This document shows positions 4,786 through 27,664 of a stretch of DNA of 33,836 nt, piece by piece (position 1 is the stretch's first letter; every line of letters begins with the position of its first letter). The notes beneath the pieces are model-generated. The model had not been told where the DNA came from. It did not search any database and saw only the letters and a list, made by a program, of their open reading frames with translations. The translations under genes and the position numbers were made by a program. Source of the stretch: Basidioascus undulatus (Eukaryota); the NCBI GenBank assembly GCA_000826855.1, contig JTLS01000081.1, forward strand, positions 1-33,836. The letters run 5' to 3'.

Positions 4786-6725
4786 TGTGGTCTGAGGAGA
4801 AGGGAAGTCGGTACGGGAGAGAAAGGCAGAGCGGGTGCGTTTGGATGGAGCTTGGAGAAGAAGGTGGGCAATCGGACGTTAGAGCAAGGAGTGCGAGTAC
4901 GTCGGGAATCCAAGAATCCTGTTGTTGTTCCTTTCACGTTGGACGCGTCAGAACGCGCGTAACACGCATGACCGCCCCATCAGCAACTCAGTGCTCCTCG
5001 TTGGTACTTGTATCATCGCAAGAGTCTTCCGAAATCTGCAACTCTTTTGAAATCGAAAGGAGTTGAATAGTTGCGTCAGGGCTCCTCGCACCTCTCGCAG
5101 TTCTGCTCTACTGCCCTTCCAAGCCGCACTTGCTGTCGGTGGTGGTGGTACTTTAGCAAATGTCCTTGCGCAATTCCCAGAAGAACCTCAATGTGAATCA
5201 AAGAAGGATTCTGTGCATATTGGTATAATCACCACCAGACTCTGATTTACAGGTTTCACGGTCAGCGGAAGTGGGCGGTGAGCGGAAAGCTCTAGCTGGC
5301 AGCCAGTCGCATGTGAATTGACCCTCAACTTTTTAGTCTGGTTCCATCTTCACAGGTCTAATTTTAGGGCATTGTTTGATTTGCTTTATCCTTCTCTATC
5401 TGGTACTTGAGTGTACGGTGAAGACAGTGCAGTTGCTCGTCTGCAGACCTCCACAGCCCAAACTCAACAATGCCCGCGCTTCTGAGGGACTGCAGTAAAG
5501 AATTCCTTCCAGATTGCATGTGAACGTTTTGGAGACAGCACCTGCACCTCTGTTACACATGTTCGCGCAGACCGCTGCACACCAGATGAAGAGGCGCATG
5601 CGGATATGTGGATTCCGCACAACTGCTGCTGCGACGTTTGGAGGTTCCTGGGACTTGAAACCCCACTAAGAAGGGCTACTATGTACCATGTCATCAAAAG
5701 TACAGCGAAAGACAGCGAGGTCAGGAGTCACCAATGCAGCTTGCCGGAGGAGGTAGCCTGTAACCTCCCGAAAGGACCGAGGACATCAATCCAGCTTAAG
5801 TTGTTCCCAATTTGAATTTCCTGGGATAGCACTTTATGCCCCAAAAACGTTGGCTTCCTTCGATGTAGAAAGTGCTCGCACGTTGTTAGAGAAAGAGGGC
5901 ATTGACGCCTGATGCGGAGAGTCTGCGGCAGGACACGAAGGCCTCAGATTTGTACCTTGACCAGTCCAATCGAAGAGCAGGGGTTTAGGGTCGAAAATGG
6001 AAAATATTCTTCGCGGGCATCAGTCGTTTTAAGACGGTGCGGATCGGTGGGCCGCAGTCAATTGCGCGTTGGGACCACGACCAGGGAGCACTGTGTTCAT
6101 CCTTGGCACTGACCTCTGCACTGTACCGACGCAAATAACTTGCAGTTATCCCAAATTGTCTGCAATATAACAACCTACAGTCTACCTTTTAGTAGCAGAA
6201 AGTGTGAGTTTGAGTCTCGCCGTTCCTGGTTGTGCTGACTGCGTCCGAGTCGACGATGTCCTGGTTATGCGGCCGGACCGTTGAGCTGCAGGCAAACGCG
6301 GTACTCCGAAAGACCAGAGGATAAAAATAGTCCGGACGGACTGAGCGAACACAGGTATCTGGCTGTGCAGCTCGCATAGCCATGTTGGGCGTAACAGGCT
6401 GCCAGCTAGTGACATCTGACTGTACATACGGTAGCGTGCAGCCAGGCAGGCTGTTGCCATCATGCCATAACTGCGCAGCTCACAAGGTCAGCCATGCAGT
6501 CATACCTGCAGTTACACACTAATCTACGTGCAAAGGGTAAGGCTGCTTCCTGCAGCCCGCTGGTCACTGCTCCTGGCCGATTTTCGGAGCACAGAAGAGG
6601 CACAACCCTTTCAGGGTCACTTCAGACTGGAACGGTATGCAAAAGAGAATGCCAAATGTGTGCGGAACAGTGTTTGCCGCGGGGCACCAGCCGGCAATGA
6701 AAATAAAATTAATGTTTATAAAATG

Positions 6726-6816
6726 CGACCAGAGCAGGATTTGAACCTACGCGGGCAAAGCCCAACAGATGTTAGAACATTCTAGTCTGTCGCCTTAACC
6801 ACTCGGCCATCTGGTC
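6726..6816 (-). tRNA. tRNA-Ser(AGA) with 9-nt intron (6771-6779)
   Basis: Same body. Anticodon AGA, intron TGTTCTAAC, variable loop TTT, G73, then CATTTT terminator. Confidence 0.95.
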
Positions 6817-8165: not shown

Positions 8166-8437
8166 TGTTGTGAGGGTAGATTCTATCGATGGAGGAGATT
8201 GGAAGGCGGTGAAACCGCGTCAGGAAGGCGCCCGCAGCCAGGGAGCTCCAACTTTCTCACGCGGCTGCTGCTATCTCTGGAGGCTAGAGGGAGGTCGACC
8301 TGGTATCTCACCTGCTCCACGCATTGCGCCGGTCTTGCTTTCTCCCTCATCTTATCCTACCCGCCTCCGCGCATATACGCTCCCCCCCCTCCCCAACGAC
8401 CACACTCCCCCACCCACGCTCTGCCTCTAACTGCAAA

Positions 8438-9130
8438 GTGAGTCCGTGCTTAGCGAGCGCAACGGGAGCGGGGGAGTCAGTCGCTAGAAAGGTCCGGGGG
8501 ATCAGCGAGAGACTGGGATGCTGGCTGTGCTCAGCGACCCCCCTTTCGCAAGGGTTGTACGAGGCCGTGCAGCCTGCTTGGGAGCGGCAATCAGCTGGAG
8601 GGAGGACGCAGCTGTGGTTGTGCGTGGATGGTTCTGAGGATGCCTACGGGGGTGCCGATGGCCGTCCTCGGCGACGGCGAGCGACATACCTTTCATATGA
8701 CCTGCTCGACTAGACCTAGACTCTGATATCCCCTTCAAAATCCTCTACGCACGAGACGATGCGCTTCATTTCCTGTACTCCCCATTGACATGCACGCCGT
8801 TTTCTTCAGCGCAGGCGCTGTCCAGCACTCCAATCACCTACGTGCGTTTTGTCTGCTCCTTACATCCCGCCGTCTTGCGCCGTCCTGATACTGACATTCT
8901 GCTCTATTCTCTCATCCTCCTCATACACCTCCTCTTCGCCGACGCCCAACGACGTGTGTTGAAATCCGGGACTGCCCGCGCACGACTCACCGGACTGCCG
9001 TTGCTTCCGGCCGCGCGTCTGTGCGCTATTGCGTTTGCTTCTCGGGTTGTTTCACCGGCTCCGTCCGGACCGGACCCTCGCATATTACCTCTGTCCTGCC
9101 CCTGCCTCCGCGATTCTCTTCAATTTACAG
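8438..9130 (+). promoter_or_regulatory. Putative 5'-UTR introns of pyruvate carboxylase (8438-8809 and 8842-9130) flanking a ~32-nt non-coding mini-exon
   Basis: GTGAGT donor at 8438 follows a C/T-rich leader. TTGAC branch-like site and TTTTCTTCAG acceptor at 8809. GTGCGT donor at 8842, CTGATACTGAC at 8885-8895, TTTACAG acceptor at 9130. No ATG in the predicted leader exons. Confidence 0.55.
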
Positions 9131-9204
9131 TTAACGACCTTATCCTCTCGCAAACCCTCCCCATCTCCTCCTCGGTATCCTCTCTCCCCCCCACCACCAC
9201 CACG

Positions 9205-12200
9205 ATGGCGTCCCCGCACCCGCCTTCGACGCCCAGCACCGCGCCCAACACCCCCGGCCCGCAGACGGTGCACCAAATCCGCGCAAAGTCGGCGGGCCAT
9301 GGCGGGCCCCTCAAGAAGATGTGCGTCCTTTTTTCTCCCATCTCAAGATATTTGCTGGGGTTCATACTGAACGTATGGACTGGGATGGACGGACGACAGC
9401 TTGGTCGCGAACCGAGGCGAGATTGCGATCCGCGTCTTCCGCACCGCGCACGAGCTCGCGATGCAGACCGTCGCGCTCTACTCGTACGAGGACCGGCTCT
9501 CCGCGCACCGGTACAAGGCCGACGAGGCGTACCAGGTCGGCACGGGCCTCACGCCCGTCGCGGCGTACCTCGCGCAGGACGACATCATCCGCATCGCGCT
9601 CGAGCACGGCGTGGACATGATCCATCCCGGCTATGGATTCCTGTCCGAGAACTTCGGGTTTGCGCGTAAGTGCGAGGAGGCGGGGATCGCGTTCGTCGGG
9701 CCGTCGCCGGAGGCGATCGAGGGGCTTGGTGACAAGGTGCGTGCGCTTTCGGTTCTTTGGGCGGTAGTGCGAAGGCGGGTCGAGCGCGTGAGACTGAATG
9801 GGCTGCTGCTTGGGAGAACAGGTCAAGGCCCGCACGCTCGCGATGAAGGTCAACGTGCCCGTCGTGCCCGGCACGCCTGGCCCCGTCGAGTCGTACACCC
9901 ATGCGGATGCGTTCGTCAAGGAGCACGGCTACCCTGTGATCATCAAGGCAGCGATGGGCGGCGGCGGGCGCGGCATGCGTGTCGTGCGGAACCAGGCCGA
10001 CTTCAAAGACTCGTTCGAGCGCGCCGTGTCCGAGGCCACGTCGGCGTTCGGCGACGGCACGGTCTTCATCGAGCGCTTCCTCGATCATCCGCGCCACATC
10101 GAGGTCCAGCTTCTCGCCGACTCGCACGGCAACGTCGTACACCTCTTTGAGCGCGACTGCTCCGTCCAGCGCAGGCACCAGAAGGTCGTCGAGGTCGCGC
10201 CTGCCCCCAACTTGAGCGAGGAGATCCGCAACGCCATCCTCGCCGACGCGATTAAGCTCGCGCAGGCGATCGGGTACAGGAGCGCCGGTACCGCGGAGTG
10301 TGAGTTCACATGCTGAGTGCAAGCGGCCGGGAGACGGCTGAGCTGCGAGAGCTCACGCTTGCTGCTGGTTGCTGCTGGGAATCGATTTGCAGTCCTTGTC
10401 GACCAGATGGGCAGGCACTACTTTATCGAAATCAACCCCCGTATCCAGGTCGAGCACACCATCACCGGTTCGTCGCGCTTCCCCTTGGCCCCCCACAAAC
10501 CACCTTGCTGATTCCCGCCCTCCCATCTCTCTTACACTTTAGAGGAGATCACCGGCATCGACATCGTCGCCGCGCAGATCCAGATCGCGTCCGGCGCGTC
10601 GCTCCCGCAGCTCGGCCTCACCCAGGACGCCATCTCCAAGCGCGGCTTTGCGATCCAGTGCCGTGTCACGACCGAGGACGCCGCGGCCAACTTCCAGCCG
10701 GACACGGGCAAGATCGAGGTCTACCGCTCTGCTGGTGGTAACGGCATCCGACTCGACGCCAGCTCTGGTTTCGCCGGCGCGCAGATCACGGTGCGTCCCT
10801 CTTGTCACAGGGGCTTGAGCGATAGAGAGGCAGGCAGCTGATGCGATCGGGATGCTGGGATTGCAGCCGCACTACGACAGCTTGCTCGTCAAGGTCTCCG
10901 CTCGTGGCTCGACGTACGAGGTCGCGCGCCGCAAGATGCTTCGTGCGCTCGTCGAGTTCCGCATTCGTGGTGTCAAGACCAACATGTGCGTCCTTGACCG
11001 CCTGTCCGACTAGCGCAAGCTCAGCTGACACTGTCATGACCTGCAGCCCTTTCATGTTCCGCCTCCTCACCCACGACGTCTTCGTCTCTGGCAACACCTG
11101 GACGACCGTGCGTACTTCTCAGCCCCTCATTCACGCGTCCGCTCAGCCGCAGACAAACTTCTCCTGACAGTTCATCGACGACTCGCCCGAGCTCTTCAAG
11201 CTCGTCACATCGCAGAACCGCGCGCAGAAGCTGCTTGCCTATCTCGGCGATGTCGCCGTCAACGGCTCCTCGATCAAGGGCCAGGTCGGTGACCCGGGCC
11301 TGAAGACGGAAATCGCGATCCCGACGCTGGAGGACCGCAACGACCCGTCCAAGCCGCTCGACACGTCCGAGCCCTGCACGTCTGGCTGGCGCAACATCAT
11401 CCTCGAGAAGGGCCCCGCGGGCTTCGCCAAGGCCGTGCGCGACTACCCCGGCTGCCTCATCATGGACACCACCTGGCGCGACGCCCACCAGAGCTTGCTC
11501 GCCACCCGCCTCCGCACGATCGACATGGCCAACATCGCAAAGGAGACGAGCCACGCACTTGCCAACGCGTACTCGCTCGAGTGCTGGGGCGGCGCGACGT
11601 TCGACGTCGCTATGCGCTTCCTGTATGAGGACCCGTGGGACCGTCTGGTGCGTTTCTCTTGGAATACGAAGTGAGAACTGGCAGGTTACTGATGCTTGGA
11701 TGAGTCCAACAGCGCAAGCTCCGCAAGCTCGTGCCCAACATCCCCTTCCAGGCGCTCGTTCGTGGCGCCAACGCCGTCGGCTACACGAGCTACCCCGACA
11801 ACGCCATCTACGAGTGCGTTTCCTTCTATCGGTCGCCCCTCGTCCACGCTCAATTGCTGATCCATTCGCGCCGGCAGCTTTTCCAAGAAGGCCGTCGAGG
11901 CCGGGCTCGACATCTTCCGTGTCTTCGACTCGCTCAACTACGTCGAGAACATGAAGCTCGGCATCGACGCGGCTAAGAAGGCGGGCGGTGTCGTCGAGGC
12001 GACCGTGTGCTACTCCGGCGACGTCGCCAGCCCCAAGGAGACCAAGTACACGCTCGACTACTACCTCAACTTTGTCCAGGAGCTCGTCGACTGCGGCATC
12101 CATGTCCTCGGCATCAAGGACATGGCGGGTCTGCTCAAGCCACACGCGGCGACGCTGTAAGTCTGCGAGCCAATTCTGAGCGGTTTAAAACGGGGATGGA

Positions 12201-14489
12201 GAGCCTGACGTGGATGCGGCGAACAGCCTCATCGGCGCTATCCGCAAGAAGTTCCCGGACCTGCCGATCCACGTCCACTCGCACGACACTGCCGGTATCT
12301 CGGCCGCGAGCATGATCGCTTGCGCCCAGGCTGGCGCGGACGTCGTCGACGTTGCCATTGACAGTGCCTCCTCTTCCTGTGCTCTGCAGCTATAGAGGAC
12401 ATTGAATGACCAACCCCCGCTCCCGAACCCAGGCATGTCTGGCCTCACCTCGCAGCCCTCTATGGGCGCTGTCGTCACTGCACTCGAGCAGACCCACCTC
12501 GGCACGGTCCGTCCCTCTCCCTCCGCTCACCTTGCTCGTCTAAGAACGGTACTGATGGAAGATTGTGAACAGGGTATCCGCCACAAGGACATCCAGGCCC
12601 TGAACCTCTACTGGTCGCAGGTCCGGATGCTCTACTCGTGCTTCGAGGCCAACGTCCGCGCATCCGACTCGGGCGTGTTCGACCACGAGATGCCTGGTGG
12701 CCAGTACACGTGCGTAGTCGAGATCTGTAGAAATGCCGAGCCATGAAACAGTTGCTGATGGCGCGAGGACGGAAACAGCAACCTCATGTTCCAGGCGCAG
12801 CAGCTCGGTCTCGGCACCCAGTGGATCGAGATCAAACAGAAGTACATCGAGGCGAACCGGCTTGTGCGTTCCTAATTTCGCACAATTTCCACCCCCTCGC
12901 GAGACGTGATGCTGATGCTGTGGTTGCGCGCTCTTTTTCAGTGCGGGAACATCGTCAAGGTCACGCCGTCGTCCAAGGTCGTTGGTGACTTTGCGGTACG
13001 CCTTTGTTCTGCCTTAACTACCGAGCGATGATCGCTTATGTTCCGAGATGTGTGGACAGCAATTCATGGTCTCCAACAAGCTCTCCGAGCAGGACGTCCT
13101 CGACCGGGCGGACAAGCTCGACTTCCCCTCGTCCGTCGTGGAGTTCTTCCAGGGTGCGTGCGCTCTGTCGCCGCCTTTTAACCTCCCGCTTTTTCACGCG
13201 CTAACCCACTACTTTCGCCTTTGTTAACAGGCTACCTCGGCCAGCCCGTCGGAGGCTTCCCCGAGCCGCTGCGGTCCAAGATCATCCGCGACCGGCCGCG
13301 CGTCGACGGCCGGCCCGGCGCCGGCATGGCGCCCCTTGACCTGCACAAGATCAAGAAGGACCTGACCAAGAAGTACGGCAAGACAATCACCCACTTCGAC
13401 GTCGCAAGCTACGCCATGTACCCCAAGGTCTTCGAGGAGGTGGGTGCCGCTACTTTGTCTGTCGGAGCGTAAAGAAAACAAGGAGCTGACAAGATTGCGG
13501 GAATGTTGGATCACAGTTCCAAGAGTTCGTTGAGAAGGTACGCGGCTGGCTTTGCTATCCGTGTTCGAAGGACTTAGTCTGGCCTGACCCGTTTCGCGCG
13601 CGCAGTACGGTGACCTCAGCGTCGTCCCTACTCGTGTCTTCCTCGCCCGCCCAGAGATCAACGAGGAGATTGCCATCGAGATCGAGCAGTGAGTCGACTC
13701 ACCAGCAGCTCTTGACTAGTGCGCAAGGTCGCTGAGGTGCTAAACTTACGCTGCTTCGCGTCACAGGGGCAAGACGCTGCTTATCAAGCTTCTCGCCGTC
13801 GGTCCCCTCGACCAGGAGAAAGGTGTCCGTGACGTCTTCTTCGAGGTGCGTCTCCCTTGTTTGCAGGTCCTCTGGCGCCAAGGCATTCCGCTGACGATGC
13901 GGCTCTCCGCAGCTTAACGGCGAGGTCCGTGCTGTGCAGATCGACGACCGGTCCGCGGCGACGGGAAAGTGTTTGCGGCTGTTGGAACACCGGACTGCAA
14001 GCTGATCGAGGTACATAACTCCTCAGAGCACGTTACCCGCGAGAAGGCCAAGCGCGACGAGCCGGGTCACGTTGGTTCTCCGATGTCGTACGTCCGCCTC
14101 GCACCGATGCAGGAGTACATTGGCTATTTGATGCTGACAATCGCTCTTCTCCTGGCAGGGGTGTTGTCGTCGAGGTGCGCTGCAAAGAGGGCAGCGACGT
14201 CAAGCAGGGCGACCCGCTTGTTGTCCTCTCGGCGATGAAGGTTCGTCTGCCCAAAGCGGTCGCAAATCTCTGATAGTCCCACTCACTCAACACTCCTCCG
14301 ATCAGATGGAGTCTGTTGTCAGCGCCCCGGTATCGGGCAAGTTGAAGCGGGTTCTCGGTACGCTCGATTCCAATCTTTCTGCAAGCGTGTCGTATGAAAC
14401 TGACTGACGTGTTTCGTTATCGTCCCACAGTCGAGCAGAGCGACTCTCTCGCGCAGGGCGACCTCATCTGCGAGATCGCACACGCGTGA
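9205..14489 (+). CDS. PYC1: Pyruvate carboxylase (25 coding exons)
   Basis: Spliced translation gives [100 protein letters not shown] and biotinyl AMK|M. Exons: 9205-9320, 9400-9736, 9822-10299, 10393-10467, 10543-10790, 10867-10985, 11047-11107, 11171-11647, 11713-11813, 11878-12156, 12227-12363, 12433-12506, 12573-12709, 12779-12863, 12942-12995, 13060-13153, 13231-13439, 13517-13537, 13606-13688, 13767-13845, 13913-13964, 14027-14087, 14159-14240, 14306-14357, 14431-14489. Intron 21 has a GA donor. Confidence 0.98.
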
Positions 14490-19557: not shown

Positions 19558-22500
19558 TCAAACGACTTCATAACCTTGGGCATTCAGACCCCATTGCGAC
19601 TCGATGGAAGGCATGCGATGAGGAACGCGCGGCCGGACCGGAGCTGGTGTGACCGCATCGAGTCTGGCAAGTGTCAAAATCAGCAGTAGCCAGGAGGAAT
19701 GGAGTGGATGAGGATCTAAGGCTTACTCCCACTCGCGCCGAAGCCGATTATATACGGCTTTGAAGGCACTGAGCGCGCCCTTCTCCATAACGAGGACGAC
19801 GCTCGTCGCGAAGAGGCTGCCGATCTGCGGCGAGAGGCCCGGCGAACGCGGGCTGCTGCTTGCGCCGTGCAGGTGGATCTCGACGCGGAAGCGAACGGCC
19901 TTCTGAGTCGTAACCATGCCGGTAGGGTCTGGCGATGGTGATGGTGAGCCAAGCTGCTTTGATGTCACCGATACTGAGAAGAGAAACTGCGGACCCCGGA
20001 TCTCGTCCAGTTTACACCGCACCACGCCGAGCCCGTCCTCATCCTGCATGACGGTCGCGACGCCGAAGCTCTCGAGCAGCCGCTGCGCCTCGATGCGGGT
20101 CACGAGGTGGTTCTCCGTTGACAGGAGACTGTAGCTGGCGGGCTTGAACGAGAACATGTTAGAAAACCAGCTACGCTTCGGGCTGGGGCCGGCGCCCGTA
20201 GGGGTTGTCGGAGAGGGAGTGGGCGGCGAGCGGTCGGCGGAGGCGAAGTAGACGGCGGGCCGAGCGGCTGAGAGGTCGATCTCGGCAGCTGAACGTCGAA
20301 GGGTGATCAATAAGAAATCGAGAGGGATAAGAAACAGCGAGGAACGTACGTCGCTTCTTCTTAGACAACTTGCCGGGCAGCGGGATGTTGGCGAGCTTGG
20401 GCGACACCGACGGTACTTGTACAGGCTGGGCAACACGGCCTCCCAACGTGCGCGTCTGAGGTTGAGGGAGGGGGACCTCGTACTTGTCCAGCAGCGCGAC
20501 GATGGGCGACGTGGGCGGCGGACGGGACGCGGCGCCGTTCTCCTTGTCCGAACCACCGGAGGCGGTGCGGGGGACTGGCTGCGCGCTCCAACGCGGAGAC
20601 GTCGAGGGCGCGCCAGGGCTGAGCGCCGCGGGAGTCGGCCCGCGAGTCGTCGGGAACGCGCTGGTGGTCGGACTGCGTCGCGCCGACCGAGTGCGTGCGG
20701 CGGTGACAGCGACGGCGGCAGCGGCGGCGGCAGCGGCGGCGGCGGCAGGCGAAATGTCGTGCGAAGCGGTAGAGTCAAAGCCGAAGCCGAGGCCAACGTC
20801 GGTCGGTCCCGCAGAGAGGGCTGGGGAGGCGGCAGGGCTGGCACCGTCGAGCCAGGGCGAGCTAGCGCTGTCGCTTATATCGTCCTCCGCGTCCTCGAAC
20901 CGGCTGCGGTCGCCGCCTTCGCTCGCGAGAACGGGAGTTGGTGGAGGCGGGTTCACGGCTCCGGGCGGCATCCTGAACATCGCGCCGGGCGACAAGGAGA
21001 GCGGCTCGATCGGCGGTGCGACTGGGCAGACCTGCATCGCGCTGAGCTGCTCGGCGATGTCTTGGAAGAACTGCTGCAGCGCGTGATCCTCGACCTGGGG
21101 GACGGCGATGGAGGTCCTGCCACTGCTCGACTCGCCGCTGCTGGCGAACGACATCGGCGACGTCGGTCGGGGCGACGGAGGAGCTCTGCTTGAGGTCGAC
21201 GCGCTCGATGCAGCGGAGACATGGCTCGTCGAACGGTCCCGCTCCGGCGTCGCCGTCTGGAGCATGATCGCGGGGACGGCGAGGTTCGGCGAAAGAGGAG
21301 CGGGCGTGGCGACGCCGGCGGTCACGAGTCGGGGCGAAGGGGGGACACCGGGATGCTGGTTAGCTTTGCGTGGCGTCAGCGCGTCGGGCCGGATCGGGAG
21401 CTCGCGATGGGCGGGGATCGGTAGGGGTGGGAGGGCCGACTGCGGCGGCGGCTTGGGTGGGGAGACGAGAGAGGGAGGGAGGATCGCGCGCTTGTCGGGG
21501 CGTGGATGGCGCTTCTTCGGCTCGACGGGCTCGTCCATGTTGTAGTTCTCGAGGTGCTTGTTGCGATAACGAAGAAGGAGGAGGTAGATGGCCTTCTCGA
21601 ACGTCGGCCTGCGTTGCGAAAAGTACCGTGAGCGGTCCTGCGCAAGTGGGCTCATGGTTCGGATGGATACGCACTCGTCAACCAGCAGACGCTGAAGGAT
21701 CTTCTCCTCGGGCTCGCCGTGCCACAGCGTCTTGAGGTTGCTGAGGATGTCCGTGTCGACTTCTTCGCGCGTGCGGACGGGCCGCTCGACGTTGCCCATC
21801 TCGAGCCGGCTAGTCGGCGTGCCCGGCAGGCGCGGCGGCAGCCGAGTGAAGAAAGGGTGGACGAGGATCTCGGGCATCTGAGGGAATGGTGAGCATGTCA
21901 GCTTGGTCTCGTGACGCAGGCGGCGTTCAGCTTACGGTGATGCGCATGGCAGGATCGCGTTGCAGCATGCGATGTACGAGATCGCGAGCGTCGCCCGTGA
22001 TGTCCGCGGGCATCTCAAATCGGCCGACCTTGACCTTGTTGAGAAGCGTGCGAATGCTGCGAAGTGGAAGGGGAACCGTTAATGTCACGGTCACGCATTG
22101 GACGACCATGTCGACCGAGACGTACTTCTCGTCGTCGAAAGGCAGACGGCCCGTCAGAAGCGCGAAGAGGATGATGCCGCACGACCAGATGTCGGAGGTG
22201 GAGCCGTGGTAAGCCTTGCCCTGAAGTCCCGCTCTTCGTCAGCATGGGCATTGCAAAAAGCATAGGAATTCCACGCGTACCGAGACGATCTCCGGGCTCG
22301 CGTAATGAGGGCTCCCGCAACTAGTCTCGAGCATGCGGTCGCCGGGCTCGAGCGCGGCCATGCCGAAGTCCGCGACCTTGATGTTGAACTCGCGGTCGAG
22401 GAGCAGGTTCTCCGGCTTGAGATCGCGATGGCAGATGTTGTATGAGTGGCAGTAAGAGACGGCGAAGATGATCTGCTGGAAGTAGTGCAGCGCCTCGTCG

Positions 22501-23152
22501 GGCGGGAGACGTCCGCGCTTGACCAGGTACTCGAAGAGCTCGCCGCCCTCGACGTACTCCATGATGAGGTAGCTGTGGTGGTAGGCGTAAGAACACGAGC
22601 TTTCGAAACCGAGAAAGTAAGGGACGAACAGGTCCTGCGAAGTTTCCCAAACGTCGTAGAGGCTGAGGACGTTTGGGTGGTCGATCTGTTTCAGGGGATT
22701 CCAGGGGACGGCGTCAACAAGGGACCGAGCGGAATACAGCTTCGGAAGCGGATACTGACAAGCTTCATGATAACAATCTCGCGCTCAATCGCTTGGAGCA
22801 TCTTGTCGTTGCTGGGCCCGTTGAGCGAGAGACGCGACGACAGCAGCCGCTTCGGCAAGATCTTGATCGCCGCGAACTGGCCCGTCACAGAGTGCTTCGC
22901 GATCTTGACCCGTCCTGTTCCAATGAAACGCGTCAGCCTGCCACTTTCCATCTCCGTGTGAAGAAGTATCATGTCGTCCAACTCACCACTGCTCCCCTTC
23001 CCAATCGTCCGCCCTATGCGCCACGGCCCTATGGCCTTGGGGTCCTCCTTCACCTTCGGAGGTACTGCGTTGCGGAGGGGAGGGCGGTGTCGAGATTGAG
23101 AGGGACCGGCATGAGCGTGAACGGGCGGCCGAGCGTATGCCGCAGCGGACAT
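19558..23152 (-). CDS. Nim1-family Ser/Thr kinase (Gin4/Hsl1/Cdr2-like) with C-terminal KA1 domain, 11 exons
   Basis: [92 protein letters not shown], a Pro/Ser-rich linker, then KRSWFSNMF and [18 protein letters not shown] (KA1). Ends WELDAVTP..GYEVV after an intron starting near 19725. Confidence 0.93.
20714..20746 (-). repeat. (GCC/GCT)11 poly-alanine tract in the kinase linker
   Basis: Eleven consecutive Ala codons. Confidence 0.9.
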
Positions 23153-23184: not shown

Positions 23185-23558
23185 ACGCGTGTTTACTGAA
23201 GGACGCGGTGGTCGCCCGGGCAAGCGGTACTCGCAGGGGAGTACAGCTGTGCTAACTGAAACGAAGAAGACGCCGGGTTCGAACGTATCGGCGTCGAGAT
23301 GCGTAAGATGCTGAGACAAAAGAGAGTAGCAGTAGGGGGCGTCGAGTAGCCTGCGGGAATGAGCGTGAGGGGAGCGGTGAGTTTGTCGATGGTGAAGGTG
23401 GGCGGTGAGGACGAAGGGCGCAATGCAGGGAAAGCCAGGGCGAAGGGCGTGTTGTGCAGTTGGGCAAAGGGACGAGGGTGAGACAGACGGTCAATAGACG
23501 AGGCACACCTTACGCGTCGAGACGAAAACACAAGAAGCGTCGCGATTACTCCACGCGA
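23185..23558. promoter_or_regulatory. Possible MCB-like (ACGCGT) elements upstream of the kinase
   Basis: ACGCGT at 23185-23190 and 23512-23517, and ACGCGA near 23553. Yeast HSL1 and GIN4 are G1/S regulated, but this 6-mer is common in GC-rich DNA. Confidence 0.3.

Positions 23559-25685: not shown

Positions 25686-27664
<1,979 letters not shown>

Follow-up and report, generated by a model that had tools for sequence, protein, structure and literature searches.

Upstream of a pyruvate carboxylase gene of Basidioascus undulatus lies a plus-strand run of 303 nucleotides (nt) that holds no AG dinucleotide, and we lean towards the view that positions 8842-9130 form a 289-nt intron of the 5' untranslated region (5' UTR), which would branch at A8894 and be joined to the first AG that follows. 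All positions refer to the window, the 33,836-nt stretch of contig JTLS01000081.1 that was analyzed as a whole. The AG-free zone (8826-9128) is real as a feature of the sequence, and the motifs around it, their spacing, the gene and its start codon can likewise be read directly from the DNA. The leader and the gene are laid out as follows.

8301-8437, plus strand: pyrimidine-rich stretch (64-74% pyrimidine, no ATG) that ends at a GTGAGT donor; putative transcription-start region and first leader exon
8438-8809, plus strand: candidate first leader intron of 372 nt, with a GTGAGT donor and a TTGAC branch 21 nt before a CAG acceptor
8810-8841, plus strand: candidate non-coding leader exon of 32 nt, between acceptor 8809 and donor 8842
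8826-9128, plus strand: AG-free zone of 303 nt, without ATG as well
8842-8847, plus strand: GTGCGT, putative 5' splice site of the candidate 289-nt leader intron 8842-9130
8885-8895, plus strand: double branch motif, with CTGAT at 8885 and CTGAC at 8891, the latter within TACTGAC; putative branch A8894
8896-8945, plus strand: pyrimidine tract directly 3' of the branch motif (C or T at 40 of the 51 bases in 8895-8945)
8946-9075, plus strand: G+C-rich middle of the zone, with a predicted stem (8964-8981/9031-9047) and hairpin (9055-9073)
9124-9130, plus strand: TTTACAG, candidate 3' splice site and first AG downstream of the branch
9131-9204, plus strand: putative last leader exon, pyrimidine-rich, without AG and ATG; 74 nt to ATG 9205
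9205-13960, plus strand: pyruvate carboxylase coding region with 20 introns traced by hand; the gene continues past 13960

The traced coding region comprises 1104 codons without a stop, and its product is 78.6% identical over 982 amino acids to an open reading frame (ORF) of metagenome contig L002. One of its exons is 79-87% identical to most of the matches listed; the named ones are mainly basidiomycete pyruvate carboxylases, and no close relative stands out. Counted from ATG 9205, the distance from Met to ANRGE is 41 residues, and it is 40-53 residues in 78 long homologues (10th-90th percentile; maximum 73). Since the start distance of ATG 9205 fits those of the homologues, 9205 is taken as the normal start, and the zone lies upstream of the coding sequence. 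ATG is absent throughout 8793-9204. Retention of 8842-9130 would add no upstream ATG to the mRNA and thus offers no obvious route to translational control.

The exon-intron structure listed above for the leader (8301-9204) is what the sequence suggests. The candidate first intron at 8438-8809 has an ordinary layout, and its best proximal branch score of 4.5 (see below for the score) falls within the range of the coding introns. It is purine-rich and contains seven ATGs with short frames of 9-39 codons; if this candidate intron were retained, or an internal start site were used, the mRNA would carry upstream ORFs. Separately, a stop-free frame of 322 codons (8701-9669, plus strand) spans the whole zone in phase with ATG 9205 and with no ATG before it. 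This frame is probably a by-product of the C/T richness and the missing TAG.

The splice motifs of the candidate intron were compared with those of the 20 coding introns of the same gene, which are 61-93 nt long. GTGCGT is the donor in 11 of the 20 and is the commonest there. A CTRAY lies 17-31 nt from the AG in 13 of these introns, and all but one have a CTNA within 37 nt (19/20). A8894, in contrast, follows the donor by 52 nt, and the final G of the acceptor is 236 nt further on. No CTRAY nearer to 9130 than the A8894 motif was found in the zone; the nearest CTNA (CTCAC) is 141 nt upstream of 9130 and the nearest YTNAY (TTCAC) 76 nt. TACTAAC is the consensus used for pairing with U2, and TACTGAC differs from it by one wobble. 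By a U2-pairing score devised for the present analysis on the basis of this consensus (maximum 6), A8894 scores 5.75 and exceeds all 20 coding introns, whose best proximal sites score 3.75-5.5, while the best A located 10-45 nt upstream of 9130 has a sequence score of 2.0, under all 20. The first-pass annotation had placed a GTGCGT donor at 8842, a double branch consensus at 8885-8895 and TTTACAG at 9130, with the branch about 235 nt from the AG, no CTRAY close by and other introns branching within a few tens of nt of theirs. All of these particulars were recovered in our analysis. Distant branching is partly supported by the combination of this donor, a near-perfect branch motif, a pyrimidine tract, a good first AG and the lack of a usable proximal branch.

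The AG-free zone is bounded by AGs at 8824-8825 and 9129-9130 with none between them on the plus strand, as had been noted earlier, although A, G and GA are all present (GA occurs 11 times in 8826-9128). It is the longest AG-free run on either strand of the window and about twice as long as the runner-up, a 156-nt run in the leader of a putative kinase gene (minus strand, 23352-23510) for which roughly 150 nt had been given; a run of 143 nt on the plus strand is the next. From the bases of the zone 7.9 AGs are expected, and the probability of finding none is 7e-5 by shuffling and 7.9e-5 by exact calculation. The corresponding probability for 8895-9128, from branch to acceptor, is 7e-4. The missing AG in the G+C-rich middle (8946-9075) is not accounted for by pyrimidine richness: 3.8 AGs are expected in 8946-9060, with a probability of 0.008 for none.

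When judged against the genome, the AG-free length exceeds chance only modestly. The genome was sampled as 80 stretches, 756,325 bases on both strands or 2.4% of the genome, which are the first 10 kb of contigs and not a random choice. This sample contains 62 AG-free runs of at least 150 nt, 14 of at least 200, 3 of at least 250 and 0 of at least 300, the longest being 293 nt, whereas block shuffles of the sample (25-100 nt) gave 55-66, 10-12, 1.7-2.5 and 0.4 runs at the same cut-offs. By composition, about 0.02 runs of 300 nt or more are expected per window, that is, in ~2% of windows of this size. One sampled AG-free run has a smaller P than the zone 8826-9128, and likewise 3 GA-free runs are found at P≤1e-4. 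In addition, a small GTPase gene (L173, minus strand; G000:C1134) has a 341-nt AG-free run (1974-2314) just 3' of its stop codon, which is of similar composition (P=1.6e-4) and contains no CTRAY. Since shuffles of local composition match the AG-free tail of the genome, length alone is weak evidence. The earlier proviso, that AG-free runs of this length might be ordinary in this genome, is therefore partly borne out: such a length is rare, but similar runs occur without splice signals.

As the case was chosen in a scan of very large size, the joint layout is suggestive and does not amount to proof; it is stronger evidence for an intron than the AG-free length. We defined the layout as one of four strong donors, an RCTRAY 25-84 nt later, at least 200 nt to the first AG, a YAG at that point and no later CTRA. 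We found 25 full layouts with strong donors when the 756-kb sample was block-shuffled 3591 times, which is 0.007 per 1.5 Mb of strand. The chance of it per window is about 3e-4 with strong donors and 1.3e-3 with a broad donor set (104 in 3591 shuffles), the latter having been widened after matches had been viewed. Scaled to the whole genome, the chance expectation is 0.3 layouts for strong donors and 1.2 for the broad set. The earlier claim of a distant-branch intron thus stands as the best available reading by virtue of the joint layout; its appeal to the AG-free length alone does not, as composition can produce such a length.

We propose that 8842-9130 would be the last 5'-UTR intron of this basidiomycete pyruvate carboxylase gene, whose front end is spaced as in this genome's ordinary introns of 70 nt. 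U1 would take GTGCGT at 8842 and U2 would take TACTGAC, such that step 1 branches at A8894; step 2 would then find its acceptor as the first AG downstream, at 9130. AG may have been excluded from the intervening 234 nt, since any AG there would be used in place of the one at 9130. Splicing would yield a short leader free of ATG, with the junction 74 nt upstream of ATG 9205, and would leave the protein unchanged. Step 2 may be slower than usual, and some retained or discarded intermediates could result as a side effect. That transcription begins upstream of 8842, that the donor, branch and acceptor are used, that the acceptor is reached by scanning and that AG is selected against are all suggested by the arrangement of the sequence.

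Distant branching with AG exclusion is already known, and this leader is probably a further case. The comparisons made here draw on excerpts of the cited papers. Human distant-branch introns with AG exclusion zones include those of PTB exon 11 (UACUGAC at -351) and GABBR1 exon 23 (-275), and where distant branch points have been verified, the AG-free zone has at its 5' end the branch followed by a pyrimidine tract (Gooding et al. 2006, PMC1431707). The candidate intron resembles this type in having a branch heptamer, the same as that of PTB, and a pyrimidine tract at the 5' end, in having the first AG as acceptor and in its putative distance of -236; it differs in that it belongs to a fungus, would lie in a 5' UTR, is 289 nt long and has only 52 nt from donor to putative branch. 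By the estimate in the same paper, only one-fifth to one-half of the zones of at least 100 nt mark a distant branch (PMC1431707).

Among fungi, distal branching has been described for 104 introns of Cryptococcus neoformans, mostly longer than 150 nt, where distances above 50 nt are possibly too long for step 2 (Burke et al., 10.1101/224170). The candidate is like the early branching described in that excerpt in C. neoformans as well as S. pombe in that the intron exceeds 150 nt and the putative branch is far from the acceptor, and C. neoformans is also a basidiomycete. Unlike in distal branching of C. neoformans, no good proximal branch is present here and the interval is wholly AG-free, which suggests that the distal branch is the main one. 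The budding-yeast genes COF1 and UBC13 also have distant-branch introns, in which a stem-loop hides silent AGs (Gahura et al. 2011, PMC3239191). The long distance from branch to acceptor in a fungus is shared with these, but in our case there is no internal AG to hide. The stem and hairpin predicted in the G+C-rich middle have pair probabilities of 0.82-0.91, yet the folding z relative to shuffles is 0.54, 0.18 and 0.16; the predicted folding would cut the distance from branch to acceptor to about 61 nt, but the folding itself is at chance level. As there is no AG to hide and the folding is not above shuffles, the candidate appears closer to the metazoan scanning type than to the budding-yeast stem type.

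Similar layouts were found elsewhere in this genome. The best internal test case for distant branching is found in a Ras-family gene: intron L180:1336-1506 (G000:C2723) is 171 nt long and lies within the coding sequence, and its flanking exons are in one frame across the junction. Its sole CTNA stands 120 nt away from the acceptor, the interval holds no AG, and its best proximal score is 2.0. In three leaders (L113, L161 and L173) a YAG close to the start codon is preceded by a CTGAC at a distance of 133-168 nt. In L113 (G000:C2320), which we take from its N-terminal sequence to be an RPL12-like gene, two successive candidate distant-branch introns (2170-2382 and 2392-2778, with distances of 166 and 136 nt) lie around a 9-nt exon, and the first of them has a double branch motif like that at 8885-8895. 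The candidate at L161:6584-6768 (G000:C2772) has a GTGCGC donor, CTGAT and CTGAC 30-45 nt later and then 133 nt without AG, and it ends in tandem TAG and CAG acceptors just 5' of the ATG of an EF2-like gene (PF00009 match). The leader of L173 (779-973, minus strand), presumably a Cdc42/Rac-like gene as judged by its N-terminal sequence, has a CTGAC 168 nt before a CAG located 7 nt from the ATG. All three look-alike leaders could be promoters. At L183:156-269 (G000:C1492), an apparent 114-nt coding intron of a small GTPase gene is without CTNA and has a best proximal score of 3.75; a repeated CCGAC near its acceptor may serve as the branch. An apparent intron without any CTNA implies that weak branch sites can work in this genome.

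A class of distant-branch introns in this genome is small at best, and no signal of it is seen in bulk. Cases at distances of at least 100 nt number 11 in the sample and 6.3 ± 2.5 in shuffles; with a broad donor the numbers are 4 and 1.1 ± 1.1, and with a strong donor 0 and 0.23 expected. CTRAY is not enriched in the first 50 nt of the 382 AG-free runs of at least 100 nt (48 observed, 61 ± 8 expected). Among 350 pairs of a strong donor and RCTRAY the next AG is more than 100 nt away in 2, compared with 1 for each of three decoy motifs. RCTGAC followed by 22 pyrimidines has 9 matches genome-wide and the decoy has 8; the AG is at 31-35 nt in seven of these 9 matches, at 57 nt in one and at 152 nt in one. 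When 42 stretches of at least 100 nt from donor to first YAG were sorted, 26 had a proximal CTNA, 2 had only a distal CTRAY (50 and 120 nt) and 14 had neither; many of these 14 are probably not introns. For the GTPase family, 31 of 45 loci were inspected, about one per gene.

The main alternative, which we regard as unlikely, is that there is no intron and that the zone is a pyrimidine-rich promoter or 5' UTR, with transcription starting inside it or at 9080-9200 and with the motifs and the lack of AG arising by chance. Composition does account for the AG-free tail of the genome, leaders and 3' UTRs often contain long AG-free runs with no branch motif, and the absence of ATG from 8793-9204 is what a 5' UTR would have. 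Alternative start sites are also widespread in Cryptococcus according to an excerpt of one study (10.1101/2023.07.18.549460). A chance origin must nevertheless produce the joint layout, at only about 3e-4 to 1e-3 per window, and the upstream pyrimidine block ending in GTGAGT, together with the ordinary-looking intron 8438-8809, suggests transcription from about 8300-8400; an internal start site could moreover coexist with the intron. It is also conceivable, though rather unlikely, that the intron is real and branches at a weaker and nearer site (TTCAC at -76 or CTCAC at -141, or else an A within 45 nt that does not fit the consensus), with A8894 minor or unused. The seven coding introns of 20 that lack CTRAY and the L183 intron that lacks CTNA are consistent with this, as is the excerpted description of C. 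neoformans distal branches as extra events in long introns (10.1101/224170). However, no proximal site scores above 2.0, whereas none of the 20 coding introns falls below 3.75 (L183 also has 3.75), and a nearer branch would leave the AG-free 5' half of the zone unexplained. Another possibility is that a short intron of the ordinary kind, about 65-75 nt long from 8842, has lost its AG, or that it ends at a non-AG acceptor near 8909-8916, with splicing failing or falling through to 9130. The 52-nt spacing from donor to branch is that of a short intron, and the place where such an intron should have its acceptor, 15-22 nt past the branch, holds CTCTAT and CTCAT; the next 220 nt are also without AG, which a lost acceptor does not explain (the improbable AG-free stretch 8895-9128 noted above), and we hold this explanation to be very unlikely.

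The first-pass annotation had offered regulated leader splicing or cleavage-based attenuation as the role of the intron. We found no evidence of regulation, and nothing here supports a regulation of carbon metabolism. An Sm-like pattern in its general form, with 1 mismatch allowed, matched twice in the sequence of this locus (L001), both times on the minus strand, and not before donor 8842. For attenuation, step 1 would take place at 8842/A8894 and most of the product would then be discarded and decay as for BDF2, lowering pyruvate carboxylase mRNA, with AG exclusion serving to block step 2, a role that it would suit as well. In S. pombe TER1, release is triggered by two features, a near-perfect U2 match and a long distance (PMC4299874), and a long distance from branch to acceptor is implicated in BDF2 decay (PMC3792478). 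In yeasts such a distance slows step 2. Like TER1 and BDF2 (PMC4299874, PMC3792478), the candidate combines a strong branch site with an acceptor that is far away from it, but it has no Sm-like site before the donor, TACTGAC is an imperfect complement of U2, and the acceptor is good; the useful product here would be the coding RNA further downstream. The candidate's donor is canonical and is used more often than any other in the gene. In cleavage of the TER1 type, an Sm/LSm site immediately upstream of the donor shields the 5' exon that is set free; as the plus strand of L001 has no Sm-like site, a stable 5' product is not to be expected, and the Ras-family coding intron must finish splicing, which implies that 120 nt can be crossed if that gene is functional. 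The attenuation claim is thus unsupported, and we consider it distinctly improbable. Finally, we give almost no credence to a coding intron, in which ATG 8790 and the 8841/9131 splice would add 42 in-frame residues to the N-terminus of pyruvate carboxylase. The frame is indeed open across the junction to ATG 9205, but Met-to-ANRGE would become 83 residues compared with the maximum of 73 in the 78 homologues, ATG 8790 sits within the candidate first intron, and a search with the region gave no homologue, which is weak evidence. A twin intron with a split acceptor was rejected upon inspection because the TT that follows 9130 cannot complete an AG.

If branching at A8894 and splicing to 9130 are true, a basidiomycete with short introns crosses 236 nt at step 2. 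This would be nearly 5x the 50 nt that has been suggested to be potentially prohibitive in Cryptococcus, and no stem of the budding-yeast type would be needed. The intron 8842-9130 is small and non-coding and would make a simple reporter for AG scanning in fungi. Distant-branch introns are also relevant to gene prediction, where the branch is assumed to lie close to the AG. More speculatively, and with little expectation that it holds, there may be a so far little-described basidiomycete class of long first or leader introns with the front end of a normal short intron (a donor, then a branch ~50 nt away) and, after it, an AG-free stretch of hundreds of bases crossed productively at step 2; in pyruvate carboxylase a slow step 2 could then act as a tunable checkpoint between spliced mRNA and discard according to carbon source. 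Among the papers listed in literature searches, judged mostly on titles and the openings of abstracts, none dealt with this leader or with an AG-free class of basidiomycete introns.

The leader was also compared with other sequences. Among 80 metagenome loci with 61-86% protein identity, the upstream DNA of 16 was inspected and none resembles this leader, and none of the best 40 rows of a blastn search aligned to it, the relatives being too distant. Only the locus itself matched in a search for a second genomic copy, and the repeats are short two-copy matches only. A structured RNA or snoRNA was rejected: the 8 Rfam matches with E values up to 10 were without exception far under their gathering scores, and the folding z values are those given above. 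Elsewhere in the window, a 92-nt tRNA-Ser(AGA) gene, which may contain a short intron, is located at 6725-6816 on the minus strand. Judging by their translations, we take 26164-27663 (minus strand) to be an actin gene and about 19700-23130 (minus strand) to be a protein kinase gene resembling the Gin4/Hsl1 group. The 156-nt AG-free run in the leader of this kinase gene begins near GTGTGC and TTGAC motifs.
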